A stretch of DNA of 25,793 nucleotides, from assembly GCA_037441385.1 (NCBI GenBank), contig JBBISH010000092.1:1-25793 (forward strand), read 5' to 3'. The position numbers and the translations under genes are program-made. Source of the DNA: Myxococcales bacterium. Lineage in GTDB: Bacteria; Myxococcota_A; UBA9042. Of this stretch, positions 3,088-25,793 are shown one piece after another (the first letter of the stretch is position 1; the number at the start of each line of letters is the position of its first letter). Below the pieces are notes generated by a model. It ran no database searches, was not told the origin of the DNA, and saw only the letters and a list, made by a program, of their open reading frames with translations.

Positions 3088-3171
3088 GCCGGGATGGCGG
3101 AATGGTAGACGCAGGGGACTTAAACTCCCCAGGGCGCAAAGCTCGTACGGGTTCGAGTCCCGTTCCCGGCA
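3088..3171 (+). tRNA. tRNA-Leu, anticodon TAA (reads UUA); CCA end not encoded
   Basis: Acceptor stem GCCGGGA/TCCCGGC, D-arm GCGGAATGGTAGACGC, anticodon arm GGGGA-CTTAAAC-TCCCC, long variable arm GGGC-GCAAA-GCTC, T-arm ACGGG-TTCGAGT-CCCGT, discriminator A followed by CCG. Confidence 0.96.
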
Positions 3172-3213
3172 CCGCTGCCACCCCAACAGGACCCTGGTCC
3201 CGAAGGAACTGGC

Positions 3214-6058: not shown

Positions 6059-6334
6059 TTACTTGTCGGCCTTCTTCTCTTCCTTCTTCTCGGCCTTCTT
6101 CTCGGCCTTCTCAGCCTTCTTCTCGGCCTTGTCGGCCTTCTTCTCGGCCTTCTCAGCCTTCTTCTCGGCCTTGTCGGCCTTCTTCTCGGCCTTCTCAGCC
6201 TTCTTCTCGGCCTTCTCGGCCTTCTTCTCGACCTTCTCGGCCTTCTTCTCGGCCTTCGGGGCAGCATCATCAGCCATCACGGGAGCGGCGAAAGCAAGAC
6301 CCAGAACGACGGCGAGAGCGGTGATCAGACGCAT
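6059..6334 (-). CDS. Small secreted Lys/Glu/Ala-rich repeat protein (91 aa)
   Basis: ATG at 6334 with a GGAG RBS, signal peptide MRLITALAVVLGLAFAAPVMA, then (AEKKAEK)n; TAA stop at 6059-6061. Confidence 0.8.
   Translation of the reverse strand: MRLITALAVVLGLAFAAPVMADDAAPKAEKKAEKVEKKAEKAEKKAEKAEKKADKAEKKAEKAEKKADKAEKKAEKAEKKAEKKEEKKADK
6062..6256 (-). repeat. 21-bp tandem repeat encoding AEKKA[ED]K heptads
   Basis: About 8-9 near-identical copies of gccgagaagaaggccga(g/c)aag on the - strand, with a 42-bp super-period in the middle. Confidence 0.9.
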
Positions 6335-6575
6335 GATGACTCCAAGATGCAGCGGCGCTGCTGTAGTTTGCGCGAAGTGCGCAGAATTAGCGACCGGTGG
6401 TCGCGATGATGGCCGGTGAGCAGTGGCACTCGCCACACCCCGGCCTCCGTCACGAAGGGCTACCCGACCGCCGGACGCGCACTCGGTCGGACTGTCGGTC
6501 TGGTGCAGCGCCAAGAGCGTGCCTGACCGACAACCATTCTGACACGGCGACCAGGCGAAAGGTAAAATGCCGAAA

Positions 6576-6591
6576 TGGCATCTTGCTCGCT
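6576..6591 (+). promoter_or_regulatory. Possible sigma54 (-24/-12) promoter upstream of the C39-like peptidase gene
   Basis: TGGCATCTTGCTCGCT fits the GG-N10-GC spacing of TGGCACG-N4-TTGCW with 3 mismatches. Confidence 0.3.
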
Positions 6592-6755
6592 CTGTCACCG
6601 CCCGCCAGCGCGAAGCCAGCCGGTTGCGTAGGGTCCATGAAAAACGTCGCGCCGTCAAGCACCTTCCAACTGGGTGCGCGACGCCCCAGCCGGCCGGGCG
6701 ACCGCTTGCACCCAGCAAACGGCAGTGCCATCCTGACCCGAGTACGGAGGACGTC

Positions 6756-11278: not shown

Positions 11279-11382
11279 GCATTCCTCTGCGAGGCGGGGG
11301 CAGGTTCCGAACCCATCAACCCTGTGTGCGCACAGAGTTTTTGGACCCAAGCGGCGCGGAAGTGTTCCGCGGCGAGCGCAAT

Positions 11383-11411
11383 AGTTTACGCGCGATGTCA
11401 CATCGTTGCAA
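11383..11411 (-). promoter_or_regulatory. Sigma70-like promoter for the DsbA-like gene, with an inverted repeat in the spacer
   Basis: Minus strand reads TTGCAA-17 bp-TAAACT; the spacer contains CGATGT-G-ACATCG. Confidence 0.5.
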
Positions 11412-11502: not shown

Positions 11503-12453
11503 ATGACCCGCGAGCCGAATTGCAGTGTGCCGATGGCCTGTTTCATCGCAACGGTGATCGCTCTTTCACTTGCAGTTGGGGTTGGTTGCGACCCGGGCGC
11601 CCGGTCGACCACGCCGACTGTTGCCGACTCCGAAGCTGGCGCGCCGCCACCCTCGCTCCGGCAACAAGCCGTGGGTCGCGATCCAGAGCCGAGCGACGAG
11701 GCACTGTATGACCTGATCAACGCCCTAAAGGACCGCTTTGCCTGCAATACCGTGTCGGGTTGTCCGGCGCACGCCGCGCTGGTGGCCTATGGTTGGGGCG
11801 CTCGGCCACTGCTCGAGGCGTTGTTTGCCCGAGCTCCCCAACAATCCACGTGGCGTTCGCGCACCGTGGCGGTCGTGGCCGACCTGGGAGACCCGCAGGC
11901 GCAGCCGTTCTTGCAGCACCTGTTGGACGACCGCGACCCCGAGGTGCGCGCCTACGCGATCCTGGGGTTGGGACGCATCGACGCCCGCGATCAGCGCGCC
12001 CGCATTCGCGAATTGGCCGACACGTCCGATAGTCTCTGGTCCGCGCCAGTCAAGGTGGCCGCGCTTTTCGTCCTGGCCGGTTGGGGAGAGCCGGGCTGCG
12101 CTCAAGATTTCACCGCCACCCTGGCCGACTTGGCCGGAAAGCAGCTAGCGACCACCGCGCTCATGATCGGCGCGCATCTGTGTGCCGAGCCGATCGCGCC
12201 GGACTGCCGCCCGGTGTTGCCGGCCATGGCCAGCCACCCGGCCTTTCAGGCCCGCCGCGACGCGCTTCGCACCATGCAGCGCATGCTCCGGCCCGAGTTC
12301 GCGCGTTCGCTGGTGCGGCTGACTGGGGACCCCGCACAGTCGATTCGCCGCGAGGCCGAAAACGCCTTGATGGGCATCAGCGGCCGCACCGACGTGAAGG
12401 GACACGCGGCGTGGCTACAGTGGTGCCAGTCGGGTGGTTGCCAGCAGAACTAG
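11503..12453 (+). CDS. HEAT/PBS-lyase repeat protein, probable lipoprotein (start uncertain: 11503 or 11533)
   Basis: Hydrophobic N-terminus ending VGVGC; repeats such as LLDDRDPEVRAYAILGLGRI and LTGDPAQSIRREAENAL. Confidence 0.7.
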   Translation: MTREPNCSVPMACFIATVIALSLAVGVGCDPGARSTTPTVADSEAGAPPPSLRQQAVGRDPEPSDEALYDLINALKDRFACNTVSGCPAHAALVAYGWGARPLLEALFARAPQQSTWRSRTVAVVADLGDPQAQPFLQHLLDDRDPEVRAYAILGLGRIDARDQRARIRELADTSDSLWSAPVKVAALFVLAGWGEPGCAQDFTATLADLAGKQLATTALMIGAHLCAEPIAPDCRPVLPAMASHPAFQARRDALRTMQRMLRPEFARSLVRLTGDPAQSIRREAENALMGISGRTDVKGHAAWLQWCQSGGCQQN

Positions 12454-12459
12454 CCGAAA

Positions 12460-13749
12460 TCAAGCCCGTTGCAGCGGCAAAGTGAGGCAGCGGGGACCGC
12501 CGCGGCCGCGCGACAGCTCCGAGCCGGGCAGGGCCACCACCCAGTGGCGGTCGCCCAGCATCAGCAAGTCCGCGTTCGCGATGAACTCGTCCGGCGACAG
12601 CACTTGATAATCGCGCCGGTTCAGCTCGCGGAGCGTGGCGCGGTTGCGGCCGTACAGCACGATGCGCCCGGGTCCCAGGCAGACGGCGTTGGCCCCATCG
12701 GACCACTGCTCGCGCGCACCGGCGCGCGGATCGGCCCCGCCGCACGGCACCAAGTCCAAGGCGCGCCCGCGGGCTTCTAGCAAGGCGCGCAGATCCCGCC
12801 CGATGGGCGTGCCACCGGCGACCAGGTCGACCACTTGCGCTTGATCGCCGCCCAGGCCGGGCAGCCATGCCAGCGCCCGCCCCGGCTCGATCCAGGTCAT
12901 CACGGTGTCCAAGTGCATCGTCGCCCGTTGGTGCGGCAGGCGAACGCCCCAGACTTGGGCAATTCCGCGCGCATGCAGGGCCGCCGCCAAAAGCAAGGCG
13001 CCATGTTCGCTGGTGCGCTCGCCCAGGCCGACCAGCACCAGGTCCTTGGCCACCACCAGCACGTCGCCCCCCTCGACCGTTCGGTCGTCAACCGCCTCGC
13101 TTGGGCTCTCGTCGCCCTCACGAATATCGATGAGTTGGGCGCCGGCCAAGCGTGGATGGTGGCGGGCGATGCCGCGGGCGATGATGCCGTCGCGCTTGCG
13201 CGCCCTCGCCCGCGGATACGACAGCACCAGCGAGCTGCCGACTACGGCGGCCAAATCGCGAGCAAACAACAGGTTGGGCGAGGGCGAAGCCAGCAGCGCC
13301 GCATCGTCATCGGGGTCCAGACCGGTCACCAAGGCCGCGCTCAATTCCACCGGCGTCAGGTCGGCCAGGCGCTGGCGGGCGTGGCGCAATTGCGGCGCCG
13401 GCGTGCCCAGTTGAGCCTCCACGTCCAAGACCTGCTCGACGATCTCGCCGCGGACCACGGGCTCGGCCAGTACCGAGGTCAGCATGTCGCGCAGGTCTAG
13501 GCAGTTGCGTTCGCCGGTCGCCGCCGCCACCACCGCACGCAAGATCGCGTGCTCCTGGCGCAAGTGGTCGAGCAGCACCAGGTCGTCGAACAGGAGGTAG
13601 TCTGGATTCGGCTCCCAGCCGTGTCGGCCCAAGCGCAGTGGCGCGATGTGATCCGGCGCCATGGCGTCGAATTCGCTGCCCGGCCCCCACAGCGCGCAGG
13701 CCCGCAACTGCCCAGTCTCGCTGGTAACATGCAGATCGAGTTGGGCCAT
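12460..13749 (-). CDS. arcA: Arginine deiminase family protein (429 aa)
   Basis: Motifs VTSETGQLR, LLFDD, PNLLFARD, VEGGD, MHLDTV, EQWSDGAN and the C-terminal SELSRGRGGPRCLTLPL carrying the catalytic Cys. Confidence 0.9.
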   Translation of the reverse strand: MAQLDLHVTSETGQLRACALWGPGSEFDAMAPDHIAPLRLGRHGWEPNPDYLLFDDLVLLDHLRQEHAILRAVVAAATGERNCLDLRDMLTSVLAEPVVRGEIVEQVLDVEAQLGTPAPQLRHARQRLADLTPVELSAALVTGLDPDDDAALLASPSPNLLFARDLAAVVGSSLVLSYPRARARKRDGIIARGIARHHPRLAGAQLIDIREGDESPSEAVDDRTVEGGDVLVVAKDLVLVGLGERTSEHGALLLAAALHARGIAQVWGVRLPHQRATMHLDTVMTWIEPGRALAWLPGLGGDQAQVVDLVAGGTPIGRDLRALLEARGRALDLVPCGGADPRAGAREQWSDGANAVCLGPGRIVLYGRNRATLRELNRRDYQVLSPDEFIANADLLMLGDRHWVVALPGSELSRGRGGPRCLTLPLQRA

Positions 13750-13897
13750 GCTGCCCTCGCGCCCTTGGGGGCTATGCGGAACTAGATTTCTTGGATGCGT
13801 ACGCGTGGAGCGGTGCGACGCCCAGCAGGGGCGCGCACTTGCGACGCGCCGAGCAGGAGGCAAGGGGCCCGAAAATCGCGTAGATTTGCATGGACCC

Positions 13898-15838
13898 TTA
13901 CTTGGCGGTGAACTTGACTTTGACCTGCGGGCTGTACGCGTCGGCGTTGGTTTCGCTGACGAGCTGCACCTGGCCCGAGATCTCGTACTCGCCGGCCAAG
14001 TCTGGGATCACCGACAAGTTGGCCGTCTCGCTGGTGCCTTGGAGCTCCAACGGAATCCACACGGCCGAGCCCTCGGGCCGCTTGGTGACGGTCCACCAGT
14101 AGAACTTGGTGGCCATGGCGGTGAAGCCGCCCAAGTCGGCCGCGCCCATCGCGAGGTTGACGGGCTTGCCCACCACGATCTTGTCGGCCGCGGTGGTGAC
14201 GCTGAGGGTGGCGGTGGGCACTTTGGGCGTTGTGTCGACGGCCACGGTTCCTGTCAGATTCACCACCCGCGATGCCAATTCGACGCTGCAGGCGCCACTT
14301 GCGAACGTGCCGGGACAATATTGGATGAAAAGGACGTCGTTGATAGTCTTCTTGTTGCCATTGGCGGGCTTGAAGTTGATGTCCACGTTCATCAAACCAA
14401 AGGCGGGCAGGGTGGTGGTCGCGAAGCCCTTGGCCAGCGCAAAGTGCTTGGACGGGGCCGAGCAGGGGTCCTTGCCGGTGTAGCCCGAGTCGTACGGGCA
14501 GATGTTGGTGATGGCCAGGCCACCGCAGCTTTGGTTGGCGATGGAGACCGTGGTGGTCCAAGTCTCGCCCACGGCTGCCTGCCCGCGCACCGGGTTGGGG
14601 CCAAAGTCGGGCTGCGGCGTGTCGCACGAGCCGGGCACGATCGGGATGGCGCCATAGTTGCTGATGCCCACGCTGCTGTAGGTGAAGGCCACATACGCCG
14701 GCGGACCAGGCAGGCCGCCCTGCGGCGTGTAGTTGACCACCACGTCGACGCACTTGTCCTTGGCCAGCGAGTATAGCTGCTGCACGTTGCCCTGGATGTC
14801 GACCAACTGCGCCTTGTAGTTCGCGTCGGCCTTGATCTGGCCGGCGTCGGTGTAGGCCTTGACCAGGACGTTGTTGATCTTGAGGGGCGGCGGGCCCTCG
14901 CCACAGATCTTGCACTTGGCGCTGCCGACGATGGGGTCGGGGAACGAGAAGATCTTCTTGCCGGTGGCCTCGGTGCAGCTGACGTTGAACGAGGCCTGTT
15001 CTTGGGTCTGCGCATCGAGCGACGACTTGCACTCGGCCGGCTTGCCGCTGGTCAGCACGACCAAAGTCGCCTTTTCGTTGCTGGGGTCGCTATCCGGGGC
15101 GTAGCGCACGCAGACCTTGAGCGACTTGCTGCCGTCGAGGTTGTCTGCCGTGCCCTTGCCGGGCAGCGTCTCGTTGCTGTTGGGCTGCTCGACGATGGTG
15201 TATTGGGCGTTGGCCGGGTCGATGGCGGCGCCCATGAACGCCATGGAGTCGTTGCCGGCGTTGCGCAGGCTGAAGCAGGCGGTCTGCGGGTTGGCGGCGG
15301 TCACGTTGGTAAAGGTGAAGGCCGTGGGGTCCAGTTGGCAGACGGCGCCCAGCGTGGCGATGCCAAAGCACAAGCTCTTGGTCTTGGCCGTGGGGTCGTT
15401 GGTGGTAAAGGTGATCGTGACGGGATCGACGTCGCCACTCTCGTTGGCGGCGTACTCGACGTCGAACGAAATGCCCGCGGTGTTGATGGCCAGACCGGCC
15501 TTCCAGTCGCCCCCACACGCGGCGTCCGTGGGCAAATTGCTGGGAGGGGTGATCTTCAGCTGGCTGTTGTTGTCCTTGATCTCCCACTTCACGCACAGCG
15601 GCATGGGGGTCTTGGTGCCCACTGTCGCAGTATTCTTGAGGACGATCGTGCGGTTGTACTTCTTCTGTCCTCGGGTCGAGTCGGGCGTGAAGGTGGTGCA
15701 AGCACTGCCCGTGGGAGGGGCCTTGCCGTCCACTTGCAGCGACAGCACCGGATCGGCCTCGCTCACGTACTGATCACTGCTGCCGCAGGCGGCCAGTAGC
15801 ATCGCGCCCGCTACCACACCGAACTTCAGATAACGCAT
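13898..15838 (-). CDS. Cys-rich lipoprotein with tandem Ig-like (choice-of-anchor D/ASH-like) domains and a C-terminal PKD-like domain (646 aa)
   Basis: ATG at 15838 after GAGGA; lipobox LLAAC|GSS; repeated beta-sandwich signatures (F-x-TNDP, L-x-N-x-G, V-x-Y-x-P); C-terminal YWWTVTKRPEGS...PDLAGEYEI. Confidence 0.75.
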   Translation of the reverse strand: MRYLKFGVVAGAMLLAACGSSDQYVSEADPVLSLQVDGKAPPTGSACTTFTPDSTRGQKKYNRTIVLKNTATVGTKTPMPLCVKWEIKDNNSQLKITPPSNLPTDAACGGDWKAGLAINTAGISFDVEYAANESGDVDPVTITFTTNDPTAKTKSLCFGIATLGAVCQLDPTAFTFTNVTAANPQTACFSLRNAGNDSMAFMGAAIDPANAQYTIVEQPNSNETLPGKGTADNLDGSKSLKVCVRYAPDSDPSNEKATLVVLTSGKPAECKSSLDAQTQEQASFNVSCTEATGKKIFSFPDPIVGSAKCKICGEGPPPLKINNVLVKAYTDAGQIKADANYKAQLVDIQGNVQQLYSLAKDKCVDVVVNYTPQGGLPGPPAYVAFTYSSVGISNYGAIPIVPGSCDTPQPDFGPNPVRGQAAVGETWTTTVSIANQSCGGLAITNICPYDSGYTGKDPCSAPSKHFALAKGFATTTLPAFGLMNVDINFKPANGNKKTINDVLFIQYCPGTFASGACSVELASRVVNLTGTVAVDTTPKVPTATLSVTTAADKIVVGKPVNLAMGAADLGGFTAMATKFYWWTVTKRPEGSAVWIPLELQGTSETANLSVIPDLAGEYEISGQVQLVSETNADAYSPQVKVKFTAK

Positions 15839-15884
15839 GATCGTCCTCGGGTCGTCCCTGGCGCCACGGCCGTGCGCCAAGCGA

Positions 15885-15914
15885 AGTGTACCTGCACCGT
15901 GCAGCCTGAGCCAA
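15885..15914 (-). promoter_or_regulatory. Possible internal promoter with an inverted repeat in the spacer
   Basis: Minus strand reads TTGGCT-18 bp-TACACT; the spacer contains CTGCAC-G-GTGCAG. Confidence 0.35.
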
Positions 15915-15925
15915 TCGGCTTACGG

Positions 15926-18900
15926 CTACGGGAAGCAGAGCATCTTGTAGTGGATGTCGACTTTGTCGCCTTTTTGCGGCACGCACGGGCTGTTCGGCGG
16001 GAAAATTACCGAATTCGAAGCCGAATCGTACTGCCAGTTGCCAGCTTGGCATACGGTCCCGTTCACCTTGACCTCGATGGTCGACGCCTCGGGAGTGCGG
16101 GTCAGGAAGAACTGCTGCGACAGACCGAACGCTACCTGTCCGATGTCCTTGAGCGTATTGGCAAAATTCGCATCGCAGATCGAGCCGACCTTGCCGCCGG
16201 TGTTGTTCGCCACCTGGATGTAGCGTTCGCCCGCCTCGGCGTCGCCGTTGGCGCTGGTGCAACCACCCTTGGGGCCGACGATGGCGTGGAAGTGGAAAAG
16301 GGCCTTGTTGGCCAAGCCTTTGATCGAGTAGAAGAAATTGGTGTAGTACGCGACGGTTGCGGCCGATTGATCTTCCTCGTCGCTCATGACGACGACCTCT
16401 AGGCCGGCCGTCTTGCGCACGAAGGTGCGGTTGGTGCCGCCGCACATGGTGGTGGCCGGATCATCGGCGTTGGGGATGCAGAAGCCGCCGTCGCTCTTGC
16501 AGTCCGCGTCGGTCTTGCAGGCTTTGCTGCTGTCGTAGACGTTGGGCAGCGTGAGCGCCGCCTCGGCCGCGCCCATACCCTGCTCGGTCGACGAGCCGTT
16601 GGTGCCCTGGTTGGCCAACTTCACCAGCAGGGCCGGGCCGCTGGGGGTGGCCGGGGTCACCACGCGGATGCCGCCGCTGGCCTGCAGCTTGCCGGTCATG
16701 GCGCTCGACTCCATGTCGGTGGTGGTCAGGCCAATGTGGTAGTTGTTCTGCCACAGGTCGGCGATCTGTGTGAACGTCTTGAAATTGTTGGCCAGGTTCT
16801 GTTGCTCCTCGCTCATCGACCCCGAGTTGTCGACCACGAACAGCACGTCGACCTGCTTGCCTACGCCTTGCACGAAGGTGTCAGTGAATTCCGTGTCCAG
16901 CGTGCCCTCACCATTGACCGGCACGGTGAACAACTGGCCCGCGCAGAACTCGCCCGCCTGGCAGTCGCCGTTGACGTTGCAGGTCACGCCGGTCTGGACG
17001 TCGGTCGTCGCATTTTGGCACACGCCGGACAGGCTGGTGTAGACCTCGAGCTGGCACTGATCCTTGCCCGTGTTCTGTGGGCCGTACTGGACCTGGAAGG
17101 TCACCGGCTTGGCTTGCGAGATCGGCAGGCCGGACTTGGGGATGGCCGGCCAATTGACGCCTTGCACCTCCAAGCCGCAGTTCTTCAGGGCCAGCTTGTT
17201 CACGTACGCATCGGTCGTACCCGTGTTGAAGACGCTGACGTCCTTGACGGGCGACTTGCAACCCACCGTGACCACGCCAAAATCGAGCTGACCTGGCAGC
17301 ACCGTGACCTGGGCCTTGCCCACCTTGGCCTCCAGATCCGGCTTGGACGTGCTGGCCTTGGCCGTCTCGACCGGGAAGCTCTTGATGGCGCCCGAGGAGG
17401 AGTCCTCGAAGTCGGCGATCAGCAGCGCGGCGAACGGAGTCACTTCGTTGGGCTTGCCCATCAAGAAGCCGAGATCGTCCGGCGCCGCGAAGGTGACCTG
17501 CACCTTGCCTTGCTCGCCAGGCCCGAGTTGGAAGAGGTTGGTCGACGGCGCGCCGGCCGAGAAGCTCTTGCTACCCGTGGCCTTGCACGTCATTGGACCG
17601 GGACCCAGCGGCGGCGGCAGGCCGTTGCCGCTGCAATCCAGCACTTTGACCGACTTGAACACGCACGGGCCCGTGCCGACGTTCTTCAAGATGAGCGGCA
17701 GGGTTTTTTGGGTGCCATAGGGCAGCAGGCCAAAGTTCAGTACGGGCGGGACCAGCGCGACCTTGCAGACCAGACCGTCGGCCCGCTCGGCGTACATCGG
17801 CAGGATCGCCTCGGGTAGGCCCGGATCGTTCGACTTGATGTGCAGTTTGGCCTGTACTTTCTGGTTGATCGGGCCTTTGGCCTCGAACTGAACTTGGAAG
17901 ACCGCATTCTTGCCGGGCTGGATCGTGGCCGGGCCTGGACTGGCCGCGGCGGGAGCGAAGTTGCCGGGAACGATGGTGAACTCGCCCAGCGAGTCGTCGG
18001 TGATCGACACCGGCTCCACGATCAGGTCCGCCGTCCCTTCGTTGAACAACTCGATATTCCGCTTGGTCTTGCCGCCCTTGCCCACGATCGCGAAGTCCAC
18101 GTAGTCATCGGGGGTCAGCAGCAGCTTGGGCGCGTTGGTCTGCGCGAACACCGGCAGGAAGTAGGTTGGGCTGGCCGGGTCGTTGCTCGTGAACACCAGG
18201 CTGGCGACCGGACTGCCATTGGCCGGCAGCGGTACCGCGGTCTTGGCGGTGATGGTGAACACCACGCCGGTGTCGCAGGTCTGGGCCACGTTGGGCGGCG
18301 TGATCGAGGTCGGCAACTTCAGCGAGAACTGCATGTCCTTGAGCGCCGACACCGCCGACACCTCGAGTTTGCTGATATCGAGCTGCGCCAGGCCAAAGTT
18401 GCACACCTTGATGTCGCGGGTGATGGGCACGCCCAGCTCCATCGGACCCAGGTCCAGGCTTTCGGGCGGCACCGTCCCGATGTGCGGGGCGATCTCCGCA
18501 CCCTTGACGTCCACCACGATCTTCTTCTGGTCGGCCGTCTCGATGGTGAGGTGGGACAAATCCGCGTCGCCGCCCTTGGGTGTGTAAGTAAGGGTAATCT
18601 TGACTGTATCTTGCGCCGGAATCGTGTCGCCGGCCTTGGGCGCTTCGGCAATGGCGAAGTCGGGGCTGTCGGTCTTGCTCAAATTGATCGAGCTGATCGC
18701 CACCGGAATGGTGCCCATGTTGGCCACGGTGGCCGTCAGCTTGGCGACCTCGCCGGCCGCGACGTAGCCAAAATCGACCGGATTGGGCTGCACGTTCAGC
18801 ATCGCCATGCCAGGCGAGACGGTGATCGGCACCGGGAACTTGCGCTTGGAGGCTGTGATGTCGTTGTTGTTCAGGTACAGGGTCAGCGACTTCTTGCCCG

Positions 18901-19300
18901 CCGCCTTGGGGGCGTAGCGGACCTTGATCTGCGCCTTTTGGCCTTTTTGCAGCGAGATCGGCTGCCAGTCGACCACGGTGAACTCGTCGGTCGCGGGCTC
19001 GAAGCTGAACGAGTCCACTTTGAGCACGTCGCTGTTGCCCACGTGCGAGATGGTCAGAGCCTGTTCTTGCGAGCCGCCCGGCGCCAAATCCGCGTACTGG
19101 AGCTTGGCCGGCGAGACCGCGATGCGCACGTCGGTGTCCGTGCAGAAGGCGCCCGAGCAAGTGGTCGTGTTGCCGCTGCTATTGGCATCGCCGCCGCTGT
19201 TGCCGTCCTTGGTGTCAGAGCAGCTTGCCGCCAGCGCGCAGCCAATCGTGGCCAGAGCGAGCCACGCCGCCGCGCGGCCAAGACTCAGGGTGGTGCGCAT
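15926..19300 (-). CDS. Large lipoprotein adhesin: about six Ig-like (choice-of-anchor D/ASH-like) domains plus a C-terminal VWA domain with MIDAS (1124 aa)
   Basis: GGAGG RBS; lipobox LAASC|SD; repeated P-x-x-[LV]-DFG / N-x-G / F-x-V-x-[FY]-x-P / SNDP units; VDVLFVVDNSGSMSEEQ (DxSxS at 16817-16831), IGLTTTD, STEQG, MSDEED and GSICD. Confidence 0.85.
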   Translation of the reverse strand: MRTTLSLGRAAAWLALATIGCALAASCSDTKDGNSGGDANSSGNTTTCSGAFCTDTDVRIAVSPAKLQYADLAPGGSQEQALTISHVGNSDVLKVDSFSFEPATDEFTVVDWQPISLQKGQKAQIKVRYAPKAAGKKSLTLYLNNNDITASKRKFPVPITVSPGMAMLNVQPNPVDFGYVAAGEVAKLTATVANMGTIPVAISSINLSKTDSPDFAIAEAPKAGDTIPAQDTVKITLTYTPKGGDADLSHLTIETADQKKIVVDVKGAEIAPHIGTVPPESLDLGPMELGVPITRDIKVCNFGLAQLDISKLEVSAVSALKDMQFSLKLPTSITPPNVAQTCDTGVVFTITAKTAVPLPANGSPVASLVFTSNDPASPTYFLPVFAQTNAPKLLLTPDDYVDFAIVGKGGKTKRNIELFNEGTADLIVEPVSITDDSLGEFTIVPGNFAPAAASPGPATIQPGKNAVFQVQFEAKGPINQKVQAKLHIKSNDPGLPEAILPMYAERADGLVCKVALVPPVLNFGLLPYGTQKTLPLILKNVGTGPCVFKSVKVLDCSGNGLPPPLGPGPMTCKATGSKSFSAGAPSTNLFQLGPGEQGKVQVTFAAPDDLGFLMGKPNEVTPFAALLIADFEDSSSGAIKSFPVETAKASTSKPDLEAKVGKAQVTVLPGQLDFGVVTVGCKSPVKDVSVFNTGTTDAYVNKLALKNCGLEVQGVNWPAIPKSGLPISQAKPVTFQVQYGPQNTGKDQCQLEVYTSLSGVCQNATTDVQTGVTCNVNGDCQAGEFCAGQLFTVPVNGEGTLDTEFTDTFVQGVGKQVDVLFVVDNSGSMSEEQQNLANNFKTFTQIADLWQNNYHIGLTTTDMESSAMTGKLQASGGIRVVTPATPSGPALLVKLANQGTNGSSTEQGMGAAEAALTLPNVYDSSKACKTDADCKSDGGFCIPNADDPATTMCGGTNRTFVRKTAGLEVVVMSDEEDQSAATVAYYTNFFYSIKGLANKALFHFHAIVGPKGGCTSANGDAEAGERYIQVANNTGGKVGSICDANFANTLKDIGQVAFGLSQQFFLTRTPEASTIEVKVNGTVCQAGNWQYDSASNSVIFPPNSPCVPQKGDKVDIHYKMLCFP

Positions 19301-19380
19301 CCGATACCTCCAGCTGTGGCGAATCGTTCGTCGTAACCCGCGCTTTGGGATACTGCCTGTTCTGGGGCCGCAGCTGCGGC

Positions 19381-21594
19381 CTATTCAAGCGACGGCGCGG
19401 GGTACTTGTGGGTGATGAACAACCCAGAGCCGCCTCCGCTGGCAGCGTCGATGCTGGCGTCGGGCCAGCTGATGGTTGCCACGTACCACATGTCGCTCTT
19501 GACCAGATTGGTCGAAGTCACTTCGTACTGCAAGACGCCGTAGATGTAGACGCGAATGGTGGCGACGCTGGGCCCCAGGCCAAAGTCGTTGTAGTAGTGG
19601 ACGCCCACGCTGTAGGTGCGGCCGTCTTCAGGTAGGGTCAGGTTCAGATTCTCGGGGCCGGCGCCATCGGTGTCGTCGCGGTCCAGATGCGGATCGTCAT
19701 CGATGTTCGGGTCATACGAGCCCCATTGCACTGAGTTGCCGTTGCCGCAGTTCAGCCAGAAGCAGTCGTACTGACCTGCGAACCACGGATCCGGCTTGCC
19801 GTCTTTGTCATAGTCCTGGCCGGCGGCGTACTGGTGGGCAAAGTGCAGATCCAAATCCGAGCCGGCGCCCGGGCCCGAGTCGCTCTCGTCTTTGTCGCCG
19901 GGGGTCTTCCACAGCAATTCCACGTGGATGGCCTGGTCAGGAATGACCTTGACGATCTTCTCGGCCGGCGCGCAGCTGGCCTTGCCGGTTGAGTCCTTGA
20001 TCTGCAAGCGGAACTTGTAGTCGCCCGCGACGTTGGGCTGGAACGTAACCGCGGCCGACTTGTCATTGGGCAGGATCAGGCCCACCGAACCCTTGGGCTG
20101 CTCGACGCTCCACTGGAATTCCGTGATGCTGGCGGTCTGGACCGACGCGTAGCTCTGCTTGCCGTCCAGGTGCAGGATCGTCTGCGGCGTCACCGTGTCG
20201 CCTTCCATGATCGTGACGATCGGCACGGGGCAATCCGACGACGCGCCGTAGCCTTCCAGCGTGGCCGTGCTCTTGATGGCGGCGATGTTGCTGGTGAACA
20301 CCAGGTTGGCCTTGTCGGACTCCACGCCGCCGTCCGCGCCCACCTTGGCCAGCGCCGCGGGCGTGTACAGCAAGTTGAGTTGAACCACGCCGTTGACGGG
20401 GATGGTGAGCGGGTTGGCCTGGCTGGGCGCTTGGTTGTTGCCGGCGGCGAAGCTGGCCCAGTCGGGCGCAAAGTTGCCGGCAGCCGGCGAGTCGTCCAAC
20501 GCGATATTCGAAATGACCACCGCCTCGTCGCCACATGACTTGATCTGCAGCGCCTGCTTCTTGGTCTGGCCCACGGTCGTGGGGCCAAAGACCACCGCCT
20601 TGGGGCTGAGGAGCAGGCACGGGCCGGTGGAGTTGACCTTGACGGCCACGCGCTTGATACCGGGGCCGGGCTGAGTCAGCGTGGGATCGTTGGTCTGGAA
20701 GAAGATCTCGGACGAGCGGGGCTTGTCGTCCACGGCGTTGAACAGCATCGAAGCATTGACGATGTCGCCGGGCTTGATGGTCAGCGGCGGGTTGAACTGC
20801 ACCTTGGCGCCAGCGGCGTACTCTTGTCCGGCCAACACGAGCTTGAACAATTCGGCCTCTAGGTTGGTCAGGTCGACCGAGCTGACCACCAGGTCCGTAT
20901 TGCCCAGGTTCAGGACCTGCAGCGGGACGGGCGTATTCGAGCCGACCTGCACGGGGCCAAAGTCGATGACTTCGGGGTTGACCTTGATCTTGGCGGCGCC
21001 GGTCGAGGTGGTGAAGTCGATGCAGTACTTCTGCTTGGCCGTCGAAACGTCGTTGGTGGCCAGGCAGAGCGTCGCTTTGCGGCTGGCGGCGTCGTCGTAG
21101 CGCAAGAAGTGCACTTGCAGCGACAGGATGTTACCCGGCGTCAGGTCCGGAAAGGTCATGGAGTCGCACGGTACGTCTTGGCCATTGGCCTTGCCGGTGC
21201 AGGTAAAGGCGGGCTTGTCGCCTTCCGTCGGCGAGGCGGCGACGTAGGTGAAGGTCGCCTTGCTGATCTTCAGGGCGCCGGTGCTTCCCGAATTGCTGAG
21301 TAGCAGCGGGATGTTGGTCGTGGCGCCGATCTCGACGTCGGACGCGACCACCGGCACCTTGCCGTTGTTGTAGATGTTCGCGTTGGTCTGGCCGTTCTTG
21401 ACCGTCAGCGTCTGGGTGGTGTCCAGGCCGAACCCGCCGCCACTGCCGTTGCCGGTGCCCGTGCCGTTGGAGGCGGTGCCGGAGCCGCCCGACCCGGAGC
21501 AGCCGGCCACCAGGGCCACCAGGGCCGCGGCAGTCAGCTGAGTCGCGGCTGTGAACGGGGCCGTGCGGCGCAGGTCAAAAAGGTGGGGCAACAT
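19381..21594 (-). CDS. Lipoprotein with Ig-like (choice-of-anchor D/ASH-like) domains, a PKD-like domain and a C-terminal YfaP/DUF2135-like domain (737 aa)
   Basis: ATG at 21594 after GGAGG; lipobox LVAGC|SG with a Gly/Ser tether; IDFG/VVFG...N-x-G...TNDP units; LDGKQSY...FQWSVEQP...AGDYKFRL; IHVELLW...DLDLH...LDRDDTDGAGPENLN. Confidence 0.8.
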   Translation of the reverse strand: MLPHLFDLRRTAPFTAATQLTAAALVALVAGCSGSGGSGTASNGTGTGNGSGGGFGLDTTQTLTVKNGQTNANIYNNGKVPVVASDVEIGATTNIPLLLSNSGSTGALKISKATFTYVAASPTEGDKPAFTCTGKANGQDVPCDSMTFPDLTPGNILSLQVHFLRYDDAASRKATLCLATNDVSTAKQKYCIDFTTSTGAAKIKVNPEVIDFGPVQVGSNTPVPLQVLNLGNTDLVVSSVDLTNLEAELFKLVLAGQEYAAGAKVQFNPPLTIKPGDIVNASMLFNAVDDKPRSSEIFFQTNDPTLTQPGPGIKRVAVKVNSTGPCLLLSPKAVVFGPTTVGQTKKQALQIKSCGDEAVVISNIALDDSPAAGNFAPDWASFAAGNNQAPSQANPLTIPVNGVVQLNLLYTPAALAKVGADGGVESDKANLVFTSNIAAIKSTATLEGYGASSDCPVPIVTIMEGDTVTPQTILHLDGKQSYASVQTASITEFQWSVEQPKGSVGLILPNDKSAAVTFQPNVAGDYKFRLQIKDSTGKASCAPAEKIVKVIPDQAIHVELLWKTPGDKDESDSGPGAGSDLDLHFAHQYAAGQDYDKDGKPDPWFAGQYDCFWLNCGNGNSVQWGSYDPNIDDDPHLDRDDTDGAGPENLNLTLPEDGRTYSVGVHYYNDFGLGPSVATIRVYIYGVLQYEVTSTNLVKSDMWYVATISWPDASIDAASGGGSGLFITHKYPAPSLE

Positions 21595-21669
21595 AGGGGC
21601 CTCCAGGGCGGCGGGCAGGGGATAGTGTGCGGGCGGCGCCTTGCCAGGCGGGCACCGGCGAAACGCGAC

Positions 21670-21698
21670 AGGATAGCGAAGCTGCCGTGCTACAGCAA
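21670..21698 (-). promoter_or_regulatory. Sigma70-like promoter upstream of the lipoprotein trio
   Basis: Minus strand reads TTGCTG-17 bp-TATCCT, about 75 bp upstream of ATG 21594. Confidence 0.45.
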
Positions 21699-21830
21699 TA
21701 GAATTCCTCGCTGAGCATGGGCCCAGGTCGCCCTTTGGGGCCGTGAACGGGGGCCAAAACGAGCTGCGCCGCGGGCAGAGCCTTTTACCCTGCGCCGCGG
21801 CGCCAACCACTGCTGTTCAATTCGACGAAA

Positions 21831-22100
21831 TCACTTGAGTTGTCGCTCTTTTGCCGTCTCGATCATCGCCGGGCGGAACGACTTCTTCAGCTTGAGCAGC
21901 TTGTCGAACTTGGCGCGCTTGCGCGATTCGATATAGATCTGCGTAGGCTTCTTGATGTCGCCGTCGATGAGCTGGTCCGAGAAGTCGTAGAACTTCGACT
22001 TTTCCTCCGCGGCCCACACCACGCTAGTACTGGCCAGACTGGCCACGCCCATCAGCAGCGACGTCAACACCGCGCCAAACGCAAGCTTCTTGGTCATCAT
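21831..22100 (-). CDS. gltF: Gliding motility protein GltF/CglF-like (89 aa)
   Basis: AGGAG RBS; signal peptide followed by YDFSDQLIDGDIKKPTQIYIESRKRAKFDKLLKLKKSF, matching the CglF-type D-F-x-D-x-x-I-x-G-x3-KP...F-x-x-L...F pattern; lies directly after gltD/gltE-like genes. Confidence 0.8.
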   Translation of the reverse strand: MMTKKLAFGAVLTSLLMGVASLASTSVVWAAEEKSKFYDFSDQLIDGDIKKPTQIYIESRKRAKFDKLLKLKKSFRPAMIETAKERQLK

Positions 22101-22211
22101 GGCGAACTCCTGAATGGTTGGCGCTGGGCCAGTCTTGAGCGGCGCGGCGGCGCGCCCGAGTTGCAGGCTACTTGCGGCAGGTCCACAGCGCAAGCGCTTT
22201 GACGCGCGCGC

Positions 22212-24275
22212 CTACTTGGGGGCAGGCTCTTTGGCCTGCTTCTCCAGGGTCTTGGCCGCCTCGATTTCCTGGATGCGCGACACGATCGCCACGAGGTTCT
22301 TCCATTTGACGTCCAACTCGTCGCATTTCTTGATGAGCTCGGTCCGCTTGGCGGCAAAATCGGGCCCGCCCTTCTTGGGCGCCGGCGCGGACTTGATCAG
22401 GACCAAAGTGGCCGGCCAGTCGGCACCGGGCTTCTTCAGCGCCACGTGGGCCTTCAGTGCTTCGCGCGCCGCGTCGCGCTCGGCTTTGAGCTTGTCGGCG
22501 GTCGCCTGCGCCGTGTCGGGATCGGTCGCCAGCGCGTCCTTGAGGTACTGCTTCCACAGCGCCACAGCCTTCTCGCCGTTGTTGAAGTGCTTGTACTGGA
22601 TAATCGCAAGACGCACCAAGATGGCGTAGCGCTGTGGGTCCTTGGCCAGCACCTTCTCGTAGTACTCGGCGGCTCGCTTGGGATCGCGGCGACCTTCCAG
22701 GGTCAGCGCGTAGCCGGTCAGCGCTTCCAGGTTGTTGGGCTCCAGCTCCAACGCCTCTTTGTAGACCTTCTCGGCGTCGCGGTAGTTTAGGTATTCCAGG
22801 TAGATGGCGCCCAGGTTCATGCGGGCGGACACCGCGCCGGCACTCAGTTGCACGGCGTTCTTGAACGCCACCACCGCGCGCGGCAGGTCCTTCAAGCTCA
22901 CGTAGGCCATGCCCAGGTTACCCCAAGCCTCGGGGTTGGCGGGGTCGATCGACAGCACCTTCTCTTCCAAAATCCAGCGCGCGATCTCGTACTTGCCTTG
23001 CTTGAGGTTGATCAGACCGCGGATGTTCAGGGCGATGGTGTCCTCGCGGTTGACGCGCAGGGCCAAGCGCAGGAAATCCTCTGAAATTTTGAGGTCGCCA
23101 CTTTCTAGCCAGTACATGGCCAGCGCCACGTTGTTCATGGCGTTGTCCGGGTCTTGGCTCATGATCGAGTCGCAGATCCCCTTGGCTTGCTCGCGGATCT
23201 GCTTGGCTTTTTCCATGTCGCCGGCATCCACGTAGCGGTGCGACTGGGCCAGCAGCGAGCGGGCGATGTAGGCGCTGGCCGAGTAGTGCAGGCTGCGCTC
23301 GCGGTCGTCCTTGGGCTCGATGCCTTTGGCGGTCTCGTAGGCCTTGCGGGCTTCGTCGTACTTGCCCAGGCGCTCCAGGGCCATGCCGAGGTTGAAGTAG
23401 GCCTCGTAGAAACGCTTGTCCGCGCTGGCCGCTTTCTGGAATTCCTGAGCCGCGCTCTGGTAGTCCGGGCCACACTTGGTGCAGCGGCCGTCTTCGGTCT
23501 TGCACGCGCCCGGGCAGCCGTACGCCGTGCACTTGTTGCTGGCGGGGTCGATGTACTCACCCACCTTGCAGGGGCCGGCGCCGTCCGAGGTCCCGCTCTC
23601 GAGTTCCTTCTCGGTGCATTCGCGCGGGATCAGGTCGCAGCCTTCGGAGCCCGGCTTGCAGCGCTGGTACTTGAAGTTGGGCGCGCCGGCCACGGGCTTG
23701 CCGGCCTCGTCGGCGGCGGGCATGGCTTCCACCTTCTTGATCCAGTCGGCGCACCATTTGGGCGGGCTGGTCATCAGCTTCTTGTCGCAGGTCTTGGTGT
23801 CCAGCTCGCAGGCCAGATCGCGGACGCCGGCCACCCATGGCTCGCAAGGCAATTCGATGTCCTTTTCGACCTCTTCTTCCTTGCCGTCTTCGGTCTTGAT
23901 TTTCTCTTTCTTCTTCTCGGTCTTGACGAACTTGGCGCATTGGTCCAGCGAGCAACCGGCCGGATTCTCGATCGCGACCGAGGCGCACTGGTTGGGGCCG
24001 ATGCGTGCGCAGGACTTGCCCAGCGAGACGAAGCCCGCTGGACAGCATTGGCCGTCGTCTAGAATCTGGTACGGATTGCACTTGGGCACCTTGCGCAACG
24101 CCGCGGAAAGGCCAGCGCGCATGGCGTCTTGGGCTTTGTCGTCGATGCCTGGCAGGTACTCTTGCTCGGCCGCAGCGGCTGGCGCCACCAGGCCGTCGGT
24201 CTGGATCATCAGGGTCGCCACCGCCAGCACTGGCAGGGCCCACCCGAACACGAGCTTTTTCATCGTCGTCTTCAT
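22212..24275 (-). CDS. Secreted TPR protein, GltE/AglT-like by position, with an extra N-terminal Cys-rich domain (687 aa)
   Basis: AAGGAG RBS; Sec signal ending APAAAA; about 20 Cys in the N-terminal third; TPR repeats (AYFNLGMALERLG, AWGNLGMAY, ARMNLGAIYLEYLNY); located between gltD-like and gltF-like genes. Confidence 0.7.
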   Translation of the reverse strand: MKTTMKKLVFGWALPVLAVATLMIQTDGLVAPAAAAEQEYLPGIDDKAQDAMRAGLSAALRKVPKCNPYQILDDGQCCPAGFVSLGKSCARIGPNQCASVAIENPAGCSLDQCAKFVKTEKKKEKIKTEDGKEEEVEKDIELPCEPWVAGVRDLACELDTKTCDKKLMTSPPKWCADWIKKVEAMPAADEAGKPVAGAPNFKYQRCKPGSEGCDLIPRECTEKELESGTSDGAGPCKVGEYIDPASNKCTAYGCPGACKTEDGRCTKCGPDYQSAAQEFQKAASADKRFYEAYFNLGMALERLGKYDEARKAYETAKGIEPKDDRERSLHYSASAYIARSLLAQSHRYVDAGDMEKAKQIREQAKGICDSIMSQDPDNAMNNVALAMYWLESGDLKISEDFLRLALRVNREDTIALNIRGLINLKQGKYEIARWILEEKVLSIDPANPEAWGNLGMAYVSLKDLPRAVVAFKNAVQLSAGAVSARMNLGAIYLEYLNYRDAEKVYKEALELEPNNLEALTGYALTLEGRRDPKRAAEYYEKVLAKDPQRYAILVRLAIIQYKHFNNGEKAVALWKQYLKDALATDPDTAQATADKLKAERDAAREALKAHVALKKPGADWPATLVLIKSAPAPKKGGPDFAAKRTELIKKCDELDVKWKNLVAIVSRIQEIEAAKTLEKQAKEPAPK

Positions 24276-24305
24276 GGTTTTGCGGACTCCTTTGCGCTGG
24301 GCGGG

Positions 24306-25793
24306 CTACTTGCCGCCGTTCTTGGCTTTGTCATCACCCTTGGCGCGGTCGTCGGCCTTGGGCTTGGCGTTCTCGGCATCGGTCTTGGGCTTGTACGACA
24401 CGGTGAACTTGCCGCGGCGCACGTTGGTGACAAAGGCCGCCGACGACGCGGGGTCCGTCGACGAGTCCGCGCTCACGGTCGCCGCCGCCTTGGGCAGGTT
24501 CGGGTCCTTTTCGACGGTGGGATACTCGTCGGGGTTGACCTTGGCGGCGTAGTCACCGGCTTCCTTGGACCACTTGTTGTAGACGCCCAGGTTGTGGGCG
24601 ATCTGGATGGCGTTGCGGAGCGCGGCCAGCGACTGCTCTTCGATCGGCGCGGCCTTCTGCTCGATGGCGAGCTTGTACTGGTCGGCCAGCTCGGGGAAGC
24701 GCTCGACCTCGGGCGGCACCGGCGCGTTGAACAGGTCTTCTTTGAAGTTGAAGTACAGCATGCCGACGCGGAACATCGACGCCGCCGCCCAGGCCTTGCC
24801 GCCGCTGGCCGCCGCCTGCTCGAACACCTTGAAGTAGTTGCCCTCGGCCTTCTTCAGCGCCTCGGCCTTCTTCTGCAGGGTGGGCAGCAGGCCCTTCATG
24901 TTCTTGACGGTTTTCAGCGTGATGGCGTTGAAGTCATCGTAGTCATACTCGGTCTTGTAGAACATCGCCTGGGCCACGTAGTAGGCCGCGGGGCCCTTGC
25001 GCGCGCCTTCCTTGTCCCACGACTTGATGGCGCCATCGGCGGCGCCGACCACGTCCTTGCGGTTCTTGACCGCGTCGGCGGTGCGCAGCGTCTCGACCTT
25101 GCGGCTCAGCGCCTCGACGTGCAGGTCGGGGCGGCCTGGGTACTTGGTGACCACGTTGTTGTAGAAGCCTGCGGCCTGCTTGGCGCCGTCGACGCCCATC
25201 TTGTCGTACACGTGACCCTTTTCCATCTCGGCGTCGGCGACCAAGTCCTTGAGTCGCTTGGTCTCGTCGTCTTGGCCCTTGAGCGCGTTGGCCACCGTGA
25301 TGAACTTGTCGTAGGCGGCCGCCGACTCTTTGTACTGCTGCAGCGCGTTGAGGATCTGGCCGGCGTTGATGAGCGCCTGCGCCGCGTCGGCATTGTCGCG
25401 GAACTTGGCCATGTCCAAGAAGGCGTCGGCCGCTTCTTTGAACTGGGTCATGGCTTCGTAGAGCATACCGACCTGGAACTTGGCTTCCGGCGCGATCTTG
25501 CTCTTGGGGAATTCCTTCACCACGCGCTCGTAGGTCTCGATCGCCACCTTGTCCATCTTCTGGAATTCATACAGGCGCGCCTTGTTGTACAGCGCGGTGG
25601 CCGCCATCTCGGGCTCTTCGGTCTTGAATTCGCGGAGGATGGTGTCGAACTTGGCGTGCGCCGCGTCAAATTCCTTTTTCTCGTACAGTTCCTGCGCCTG
25701 CTCGGCGACCGACACGGCCACGTACTTGCGCAGGTCCTTGACGGTCAGCAACTCCAGCTTCTTGCGCTTGAGCATCAGGCGCGACCATTCCTC
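24306..25793 (-). CDS. gltD: TPR protein, C-terminal part of a GltD/AgmU-like gliding protein; 5'-truncated
   Basis: Frame open to the window edge; TPR repeats (ALYNKARLY, APEAKFQVGMLY); GltD-type C-terminus FRVGMLY-x-x-F...NAPVP...Y...AAPIEEQ...A...YNKW...NPDEYP. Confidence 0.72.
   Translation of the reverse strand, partial: EEWSRLMLKRKKLELLTVKDLRKYVAVSVAEQAQELYEKKEFDAAHAKFDTILREFKTEEPEMAATALYNKARLYEFQKMDKVAIETYERVVKEFPKSKIAPEAKFQVGMLYEAMTQFKEAADAFLDMAKFRDNADAAQALINAGQILNALQQYKESAAAYDKFITVANALKGQDDETKRLKDLVADAEMEKGHVYDKMGVDGAKQAAGFYNNVVTKYPGRPDLHVEALSRKVETLRTADAVKNRKDVVGAADGAIKSWDKEGARKGPAAYYVAQAMFYKTEYDYDDFNAITLKTVKNMKGLLPTLQKKAEALKKAEGNYFKVFEQAAASGGKAWAAASMFRVGMLYFNFKEDLFNAPVPPEVERFPELADQYKLAIEQKAAPIEEQSLAALRNAIQIAHNLGVYNKWSKEAGDYAAKVNPDEYPTVEKDPNLPKAAATVSADSSTDPASSAAFVTNVRRGKFTVSYKPKTDAENAKPKADDRAKGDDKAKNGGK

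Follow-up and report, generated by a model that had tools for sequence, protein, structure and literature searches.

Three Ig-stalk lipoproteins encoded beside Glt/Nfs-like genes in uncultured Myxococcota: candidate adhesin or cargo heads

The closest described relatives of the locus treated here are the Nfs and Glt systems of Myxococcus xanthus, for which we draw on parts of the papers cited. The nfsA-H genes lie in one region that is syntenic with gltA-C plus gltD-H (Wartel 2013), and gltF, gltA and gltB are listed among the genes confined to Myxococcales and Bdellovibrionales (Luciano 2011). CglB, a VWA lipoprotein, is held and exposed by GltA, GltB, GltH and GltK (Islam 2023), and CglD, a second, beta-integrin-like VWA lipoprotein, stabilizes adhesion (bioRxiv 10.1101/2023.10.19.562135). 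In an AlphaFold model of the M. xanthus complex, GltF bridges GltC, GltD and the TonB-like domain of GltG (the 2025 model paper). Here we describe a locus on a stretch of 25,793 nucleotides from a Myxococcales bacterium (GTDB lineage Bacteria; Myxococcota_A; UBA9042; assembly GCA_037441385.1, contig JBBISH010000092.1, positions 1 to 25,793 of the forward strand; the whole stretch is called the window below), in which GltD-, GltE- and GltF-like genes (A, B and C) are followed by genes for three lipoproteins, called D, E and F.

We propose, with a probability of about 0.5, that D, E and F serve as adhesin or cargo heads, encoded in cis, for a Glt/Nfs-type outer-membrane/periplasm module carried by a clade of uncultured Myxococcota. 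The six genes are minus-strand open reading frames (ORFs) of one orientation, with GC contents at third codon positions (GC3) of 0.80–0.92, and fill the right-hand 11.9 kb of the window (13898–25793; Table 1). The original prediction for this DNA, made from its letters, had counted six co-oriented genes, and both the count and the coordinates agree with ORF calls and GC3. Transcription runs from A to F across intergenic gaps of 30 nt (A–B), 111 nt (B–C), 236 nt (C–D), 80 nt (D–E) and 87 nt (E–F), with the start codons of the GltF-like gene and of D set by upstream ribosome-binding-like motifs. Domain assignments rest on hidden Markov model (HMM) and profile-profile comparisons.

The association of the trio with Glt-like genes recurs in related genomes. 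A profile of D homologues gave 80 loci from species-representative genomes, all of them metagenome-assembled genomes (MAGs) that are labeled mostly Myxococcota, Myxococcales or Deltaproteobacteria, the rest as Proteobacteria/Pseudomonadota, as “bacterium” or under names that are plainly wrong; HMMs built from the locus families were used to label the ORFs of every locus. The D-E-F trio is present in 35 loci. Six of these have less than 700 nt of upstream sequence, and in three of them the end of a gltF-like gene is still visible. Among the 29 trio loci with at least 4 kb of upstream sequence, the trio stands beside Glt-like genes in 27: GltD-GltE(-GltF) lie directly upstream and co-oriented, as in the window, in 23, and in four (L035, L042, L044 and L046) GltE<GltD<GltC<barrel<VWA-lipoprotein genes are head-to-head with D>E>F. 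The other two (L034 and L077) have no recognizable Glt gene near the trio. The outer flanks of the three head-to-head loci annotated for this comparison contain RNase H and LexA genes (L035, L042) or a LexA gene (L046), those of the window-type loci contain arginine-deiminase-family, HEAT and triple-DsbA genes, and the Glt-trio association is all that the two types have in common. As this association holds in 27 of 29 loci and in two different arrangements, we argue for a functional link between trio and Glt-like genes. The original prediction had named chance juxtaposition as the outcome that synteny across related genomes could reveal; on these counts, the trio is not a chance neighbor.

How firmly can genes A, B and C be called Glt genes? 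The GltF-like protein has a single NCBIfam match, NF033764 gliding_CglF (E-value 1.1e-11, profile positions 9–87 of 88), and this model, and no other, is matched by all 13 aligned GltF-like relatives. Since the score of 44.6 bits lies below the curated equivalog cutoff of 90, we regard the protein as a homologue rather than a certified orthologue. A search for its relatives found no named proteins among the best 120 of 3156 matches. Some loci (L010–L012, L016, L020, L021 and L025) have a second, diverged gltF-like gene (78–108 amino acids) just before D; a remnant of such a paralogue was sought in the C–D gap of the window and not found there.

The GltE-like protein matches NF033758 gliding_GltE (E-value 4.9e-23, 81.8 bits against a cutoff of 225), with residues 269–579 on profile positions 65–353 of 411. 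Many TPR families also match, and because the generic TPR models PrsT and MamA outscore it, a GltE identity does not follow from the profile by itself. The gene sits between the GltD-like and GltF-like genes, where GltE is expected. A Cys-rich N-terminal insert, with 20 Cys in residues 66–268 and no family match for that region, precedes the TPRs and a long C-terminal helix-like tail; the GltE homologue of L044 (469 amino acids) is without the insert. The GltD-like protein matches only generic TPR, YbgF and BamD-type models. Its orthologue in L002 is a protein of 1210 amino acids with a signal peptide, encoded between GltC-like and GltE-like genes, and finds no Glt-specific model at full length even at E-values up to 10. 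Over about 750 residues, the GltD-like protein is collinear, at 22–23% identity, with two large TPR proteins, one from an Anaeromyxobacteraceae MAG (pairwise E-value 2e-36) and one from a Myxococcaceae isolate (3e-15), neither of which is named GltD in its source, and the 117 matches of a search for its relatives bear generic names only (“TPR protein”, “TolA-binding protein”). We use the label GltD provisionally, on the grounds of orthologue size, position and this collinear similarity. As the profiles give generic TPR or non-exclusive matches, the identities of GltD and GltE rest mainly on context, which is strong. The earlier assignment of the three genes thus stands for GltF, whose only match is CglF, is backed by a real but non-exclusive match for GltE, and has no specific profile match for GltD.

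Since the window ends inside gltD, GltC and the outer-membrane barrels were read in relatives only. In L002, the closest locus with upstream sequence (D 85% identical), GltD is preceded by a protein of 658 amino acids for which gliding_GltC is by far the best model (E-value 1.3e-53, profile positions 62–620 of 622, 182.7 bits, cutoff 450), and this by two OMP_myx_plus beta-barrels (76–86 bits, cutoff 60). GltC-like and OMP_myx_plus genes are also found in L066 and in the more distant L044; the GltC matches of the three relatives have E-values of 1.3e-53, 4.5e-51 and 1.1e-54 (174–186 bits), and their OMP_myx_plus matches, at 76–111 bits, all exceed the cutoff. The full order in relatives is a VWA lipoprotein, one or two OMP_myx_plus barrels in the GltA/B position, GltC-, GltD-, GltE- and GltF-like proteins, and D, E and F. 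In this clade the locus would measure roughly 20–30 kb, and the window covers its distal half.

The order barrel(s)-GltC-GltD-GltE-GltF, present in the 23 window-type loci, is that of nfsA-F in a single cluster (Wartel 2013), and it departs from nfs and glt after F, where three Ig-stalk lipoproteins stand here and G (TonB-like) and H (a barrel) stand there. With homologues or look-alikes of GltF/CglF, GltE and GltD in the window and GltC and barrels upstream in relatives, sequence comparison supports the view that the locus belongs to the Glt/Nfs kind. In the scheme of Luciano (2011), the presence of gltF and gltA/B-type barrels would make it an expanded system rather than one of the minimal “core” type. 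The original prediction of a variant Agl-Glt-type machine is therefore supported as to kind, by the relatives' GltC, barrels and nfsA-F gene order, and no motor or linker gene was found in the window or the annotated flanks. TonB/TolA-like, MotA/ExbB and ExbD genes (the counterparts of GltG/NfsG and AglRQS) are absent from the window, the rest of the genome not having been searched; no TonB- or TolQR-like gene is among the annotated flanks of L002, L066, L044, L035, L042, L046, L041, L057 and L013; and no gltH-, gltI-, gltJ- or gltK-like gene is nearby in the window or annotated flanks. The proposal that the trio stands “instead of gltG” consequently holds for its position after gltF, and for the absence of a TonB/TolA-like gene over the range just given. 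Because GltF is retained, and bridges to GltG in the M. xanthus model, a GltG-like partner may be expected somewhere in the genome.

In eight genomes, each with two overlapping loci, the whole region is visible, and there two to three extra D paralogues in tandem lie head-to-head with the first gene of the Glt-like cluster. This gene, U689, encodes a VWA-like lipoprotein of 577–697 amino acids with SCDSTAKF, DxSGS and TDGPDT motifs and a Cys-rich tail, and it heads the cluster and faces two to four tandem D paralogues in L041, L049, L057, L061–L064, L066, L067, L072 and L076. The arrays of tandem D genes with upstream sequence are head-to-head with a Glt-like cluster in 11 cases of 12. In L057, four D paralogues face the cluster in this way, and an E-type gene follows about 4.5 kb downstream, behind three genes that include one for a kinase. 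In the genome of the window, the region with U689 and tandem D genes would lie beyond the right end. A search of U689 against PDB sequences gave Plasmodium TRAP as the best match, which is not significant (E-value 0.087), and no relationship between E and U689 is detectable (hhalign 2%). In a tree of 99 D-family proteins (FastTree, local support only), the trio-type D proteins group together, the D proteins of each tandem position do likewise, and those of the head-to-head type make up a further clade (99). As each positional class forms its own well-supported clade, the D copies appear to be old and retained. Several loci (L011, L019, L021, L023, L029, L039, L041, L058, L062 and L072) are titled Enterobacteriaceae or Klebsiella pneumoniae, yet carry the Myxococcota-type cluster; these bins are probably mislabeled, and they group with Myxococcota MAGs in the D tree.

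By signal peptide and conserved lipobox Cys, D, E and F are bacterial lipoproteins, as the original prediction held. Their signal peptides end in the lipoboxes LVAGC32 (D), LAASC27 (E) and LLAAC18 (F), motifs read from the sequence, and the lipobox Cys is retained by all 27 E homologues and all 29 F homologues, and at least 90% of 15 D homologues have it too. Profile-profile alignment identifies them as paralogues, each with a lipid anchor, a homologous Ig-like stalk and a head of its own. The shared stalk claimed earlier is recovered by hhalign for all three pairs: residues 57–465 of D align with 26–414 of F (99.5%, E-value 1.5e-22), the E–D alignment spans 357 columns (99.8%, 1.1e-28) and the E–F alignment 471 (99.9%, 3.2e-31). 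This stalk is composed of ASH/HYDIN/PapD-type Ig domains (“choice-of-anchor D”). In E it matches HYDIN Ig (6.8e-31), ASH (9.8e-17) and choice_anch_D (7e-40), and the E profile finds the ASH arrays of ciliary Hydin in the PDB (7sqc, E-value 4.9e-56). The F protein of the window itself has no family match; among its 29 homologues, nine match DUF1573, seven HYDIN Ig and six Cep192_D4.

Behind its lipobox, D has a Gly/Ser linker, an Ig-like stalk (residues about 57–452), a PKD domain (455–551) and an acidic C-terminal tip (547–737); E has an ASH/HYDIN Ig array (about 55–790), a Cys-rich linker, a VWA domain and a small C-terminal domain; and F has the stalk homologous to those of D and E, a further Ig-like region and a PKD-like C-terminal domain. 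The numbers of Cys residues (D 11, E 26, F 19) are as expected for extracytoplasmic proteins. The heads are better conserved than the stalks, with pairwise column identities of 0.70 for the tip and 0.43 for the stalk of D, and 0.61 and 0.46 for those of E.

The heads predicted from the letters alone proved correct for E and F and not for D. The VWA-MIDAS head of E has its DxSxS motif and D974 invariant in all 27 homologues, and T861 is present in at least 90% of these sequences. The Pfam VWA_2 match is weak (E-value 0.0033); the best named model is that of the Bdellovibrio MIDAS adhesins, NF052240 (1.3e-16), followed by CglD (2.3e-12), both far below their cutoffs, and searches of PDB sequences with the VWA head found nothing. 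The PKD-like end of F resembles the PKD domain of D (hhalign 96.5%), and one of 29 F homologues has a PKD match in Pfam. The tip of D, a 185-residue acidic domain with a single DxDxDGxxD motif that is probably a calcium site, is the most conserved part of the whole trio and also forms the C terminus of 2686 representative proteins of many lengths (459 at E-values up to 1e-30), mostly right after a PKD domain. It had been called YfaP/DUF2135-like, a name that goes back to the E. coli yfa cluster. The tip has no Pfam model and no Pfam match at E-values up to 1, a PDB sequence search gave nothing beyond the PKD domain, and DUF2135 (PF09906) is matched at E-values up to 0.001 by none of the 47 tip-bearing relatives scanned among the 150 listed. 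Two weak leads to DUF2135 exist: one D relative is named “YfaP family protein” by NCBI, and a language-model search returned, at rank 30 with a score of 0.87, a cluster in which 10% of the members carry DUF2135. As far as these searches go, an unmodeled C-terminal domain that usually follows a K319L-like PKD domain is the more apt description of the tip.

Among described surface proteins, CglD is a natural comparison for E, which is likewise a large Cys-rich lipoprotein with a C-terminal VWA/MIDAS domain that aligns with positions 642–884 of the CglD profile. On the CglD model NF033765, E scores 39.1–45.6 bits, against a cutoff of 400. E also differs in having an ASH/HYDIN Ig stalk and no DxDxDG motif, whereas CglD has COMP-like DxDxDG repeats and an EGF-like stalk. 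In M. xanthus, cglD lies apart from the glt clusters, whereas E is encoded beside glt-like genes. The likeness to CglB is one of concept, a VWA lipoprotein that works with the Glt outer-membrane module; it is U689, in the first gene of the relatives' clusters, that holds the gltK position. Neither E nor U689 shows a sequence-level match to a CglB model in NCBIfam searches. The Bdellovibrio MIDAS adhesins, of which the Bd0875 type sits at the site of contact between predator and prey (Tyson 2024), share with E a lipobox and a MIDAS and supply the named model on which its head scores best. On that model E reaches 55.6–60.7 bits against a cutoff of 700, and only the VWA core aligns (profile positions 47–219 of 378). 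In the part of Tyson (2024) on which we draw, these adhesins have no long Ig stalk and are not described in gliding clusters. Searches of open-access and bioRxiv text turned up no Glt/Nfs cluster described together with a lipoprotein trio of this kind.

If the trio works with the Glt-like module, what might it do? By analogy with CglB and CglD, we infer surface exposure, adhesion and a link to motility for D, E and F, which would be outer-membrane lipoproteins presented by the barrel/GltC module. There they may act as cis-encoded contact heads that bind substratum, polymer, prey or another cell through metal-dependent sites, the MIDAS of E and the probable calcium site of D. The GltD/E/F scaffold would transmit force, supplied by a TolQR-like motor and a TonB-like linker encoded elsewhere. 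The output might be gliding, surface transport of a polymer as for Nfs or prey contact as for Bd0875. The route from the force of the Agl motor to a surface adhesin is known from one organism only, in which cglB and cglD are not clustered with the machine genes; in the present locus the candidate heads have their genes next to those of the module, and as paralogues with a common stalk and exchangeable tips they offer natural pairings to examine. The cluster can also serve as a marker for such systems in genomes of uncultured predators, and the D tip represents a large C-terminal domain family without a Pfam model.

The original prediction had cautioned that a separate promoter might lie before D, and this caution is strengthened by a terminator-like hairpin with a T-run between gltF and D. 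The hairpin begins 27 nt past the gltF stop codon and folds at −35.6 kcal/mol (z −2.6; two of 200 shuffles fold as well); a terminator scan tool missed it, as its run has only four T. Equally strong hairpins with other stem sequences lie at the same place in L002, L003 and L004 (z −3.5 to −4.7), and the other four intergenic gaps contain nothing comparable (z −0.8 to +1.2). RNA folding of the whole C–D gap gave no unusual structure (z −0.77). A hairpin with T-run as a general feature was rejected: a script finds one in two of 22 relatives with a called gltF (L003 also by direct folding), and the feature is thus local to the nearest relatives of the window. Of the suggested promoter, the hexamers match the consensus at only eight of 12 positions, below the threshold of a sigma-70-like promoter scan that found none in 12300–25793; L002 has an almost identical block, and L003, L004 and L008 conserve parts of it. 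Both signals, the terminator-like hairpin and the weak promoter, fall between gltF and D and make a separate trio transcript probable; the window likely has two transcription units, gltD-E-F and D-E-F, perhaps with read-through.

Table 1. Positions of genes, head domains and transcription signals in the window.
Feature	Nucleotides	Strand	Residues	Remarks
GltD-like (gene A)	24306–25793	−		C-terminal 495 amino acids; 5′ end cut by window edge
GltE-like (gene B)	22212–24275	−		687 amino acids; TPR protein, signal peptide without lipobox
GltF/CglF-like (gene C)	21831–22100	−		89 amino acids, small secreted protein; AGGAG 7 nt before ATG
Terminator-like hairpin and T-run	21754–21803	−		GC-rich stem 21766–21803, then AGCUCGUUUUGG
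Weak promoter-like hexamers	21670–21698	−		TTGCTG-17 nt-TATCCT; 8/12 consensus matches, below scan threshold
Lipoprotein D	19381–21594	−		737 amino acids; ATG behind GGAGG
D, PKD (K319L-like, PF22352)	19942–20232	−	455–551	26.4 bits, cutoff 27; profile against KIAA0319L, E-value 2.3e-9
D, acidic tip	19381–19956	−	547–737	DYDKDGKPD at residues 594–602
Lipoprotein E	15926–19300	−		1124 amino acids
E, VWA-MIDAS	16817–16831	−	824–828	DNSGS; D824, S826, S828 and D974 invariant in 27 sequences
Lipoprotein F	13898–15838	−		646 amino acids
F, PKD-like end	13949–14218	−	about 541–630	hhalign against D PKD, 96.5%, E-value 1e-9

Several points weigh against our proposal. The Glt-specific matches are all below the NCBIfam curated cutoffs, with GltD lacking one altogether and GltE outscored by generic TPR models, and the distance to proteins of cultured myxobacteria is large (about 22–23% identity). 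The GltD- and GltE-like proteins have ordinary signal peptides without a lipobox, whereas GltE is a lipoprotein by its NCBIfam name and the 2025 model paper numbers GltD and GltE of M. xanthus from Cys1; the Cys-rich insert is a further difference of the GltE-like protein from the M. xanthus systems. With no motor or TonB-like gene in the window or annotated flanks, an energized machine is not demonstrated, and sequence does not reveal whether D, E and F are exposed at the surface. The hairpin downstream of gltF speaks against a single operon of six genes in the window, the trio occurs without recognizable Glt genes in L034 and L077, and D-family genes also occur alone beside rpoD, dnaG and priA. 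Finally, the MAGs that supplied the loci are all related, and some of the synteny therefore reflects inheritance.

Some of these points would be expected if D, E and F were independent surface or envelope lipoproteins, such as general adhesins or an S-layer-like coat, that have Glt neighbors by shared descent and no mechanistic link to them, an explanation that we consider unlikely. The L034 trio lies between FtsK/M74 peptidase genes and a GH31 gene, and the neighbors of the L077 trio are only weakly TPR-like: TPR genes beside the trio in L077, L080 and L052 match the GltE profile of the locus at E-values of 1.4e-4 to 2.7e-8. The solitary D-family genes, the spread of the D tip over proteins of so many lengths and the hairpin that parts the trio from gltF all fit independence. 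Inheritance alone can keep gene order in this clade, because the housekeeping arginine-deiminase, HEAT and DsbA neighbors are also syntenic in most window-type loci. Against this, the adjacency of trio and Glt-like genes outlasts a full change of arrangement and of outer flanks in the four more distant genomes, nearly all tandem D arrays face a Glt-like cluster, the four D paralogues of L057 do so with an E-type gene downstream, and the positional D classes form clades of their own, as expected of old, retained copies. Solitary D-family genes in L037 (2772–3578) and L045 (8710–9468) adjoin a T4 gp19-like tail-tube gene and priA.

It is also possible, in our judgment rather improbable, that the system is Nfs-like in function and moves or organizes a secreted polymer (a coat or exopolysaccharide) or other cargo on cells that do not glide and may be planktonic; D, E and F would then be heads that bind the polymer. 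The arrangement in one cluster in nfsA-F order, the lack of gltI-, gltJ- and gltK-like genes nearby and the titles of many related records, which are water-column metagenome bins, are consistent with this, and Agl-Glt/Nfs machines have been proposed as versatile surface transporters (Wartel 2013), with core complexes reported in non-gliding bacteria (Luciano 2011). However, the window and annotated flanks contain no genes for polysaccharide synthesis or export, and the better-known VWA/MIDAS heads are protein or surface adhesins.

A more novel reading, in our view doubtful, is that Glt/Nfs has here been rebuilt as a multi-headed adhesion organelle for capture of prey or particles rather than for gliding, with an integrin-like VWA pair, calcium-binding heads and either a linker other than GltG or no dedicated one. 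Its outer-membrane barrel/GltC-F module would display a family of lipid-anchored Ig stalks made up of D, E and F, as many as three or four extra D paralogues and the second VWA lipoprotein from the head of the cluster, and the organelle would belong to a clade of uncultured, largely aquatic Myxococcota.

D, E and F might instead face the periplasm, their stalks crossing it, and replace GltG, GltH or GltJ as linkers of the outer-membrane module to peptidoglycan or an inner-membrane partner. Lipoproteins face the periplasm by default, and the stalk of E, about 730 residues of Ig-like domains at some 4 nm per domain, could span tens of nanometers. No TonB-like gene lies nearby in the window or annotated flanks, and the trio occupies the gltG/gltH position after gltF (Luciano 2011; Wartel 2013). 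We nevertheless think this quite improbable, since D, E and F have no transmembrane or motor-contact element and so would be unable to engage a TolQR-type motor in the way of GltG, show no similarity to the TonB, TolA, FHA or GYF parts of GltG and GltJ, carry VWA/MIDAS and PKD heads typical of extracellular binding, find their closest profile matches in surface adhesins (CglD and the Bdellovibrio MIDAS adhesin) and stand beside a retained GltF, which suggests a GltG-like partner somewhere.

The remainder of the window holds other genes. Co-oriented with the trio and directly downstream of F is an arginine-deiminase-family gene (12460–13863, minus strand; PF02274, E-value 1.4e-56), which occupies the same place in 21 of 28 window-type loci. 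Another gene (9242–11401, minus strand) encodes a 719-amino-acid protein with three DsbA/thioredoxin-like domains; by tblastn, 21 of 28 window-type loci have a homologue a few kilobases beyond the trio on its downstream side. This protein might serve the oxidative folding of the Cys-rich D, E, F and GltE-like proteins, or it may be merely syntenic. A tRNA-Leu gene (anticodon TAA; 3088–3173, plus strand), found by Rfam and ARAGORN, lies between a MopE-repeat gene and a helicase gene, and Rfam found no other RNA over the window. The MopE-repeat gene (2–2836, plus strand) encodes a large, 5′-cut protein with 11 copies of the Cu-binding_MopE “putative metal-binding motif” (PF11617, E-value 8.7e-93). 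At 6059–6844 (minus strand) is an ORF with alanine-zipper-like matches and, at its 3′ end (6062–6257), a 21-nt repeat in about nine copies; GC3-based gene picking prefers a plus-strand ORF here (6063–6419), and the coding strand is ambiguous. An overlapping plus-strand gene (6567–9191) encodes a protein of 874 amino acids with a C39-like peptidase domain (E-value 5.2e-8) and contains a 159-nt tandem repeat in 3.9 copies (7068–7679).

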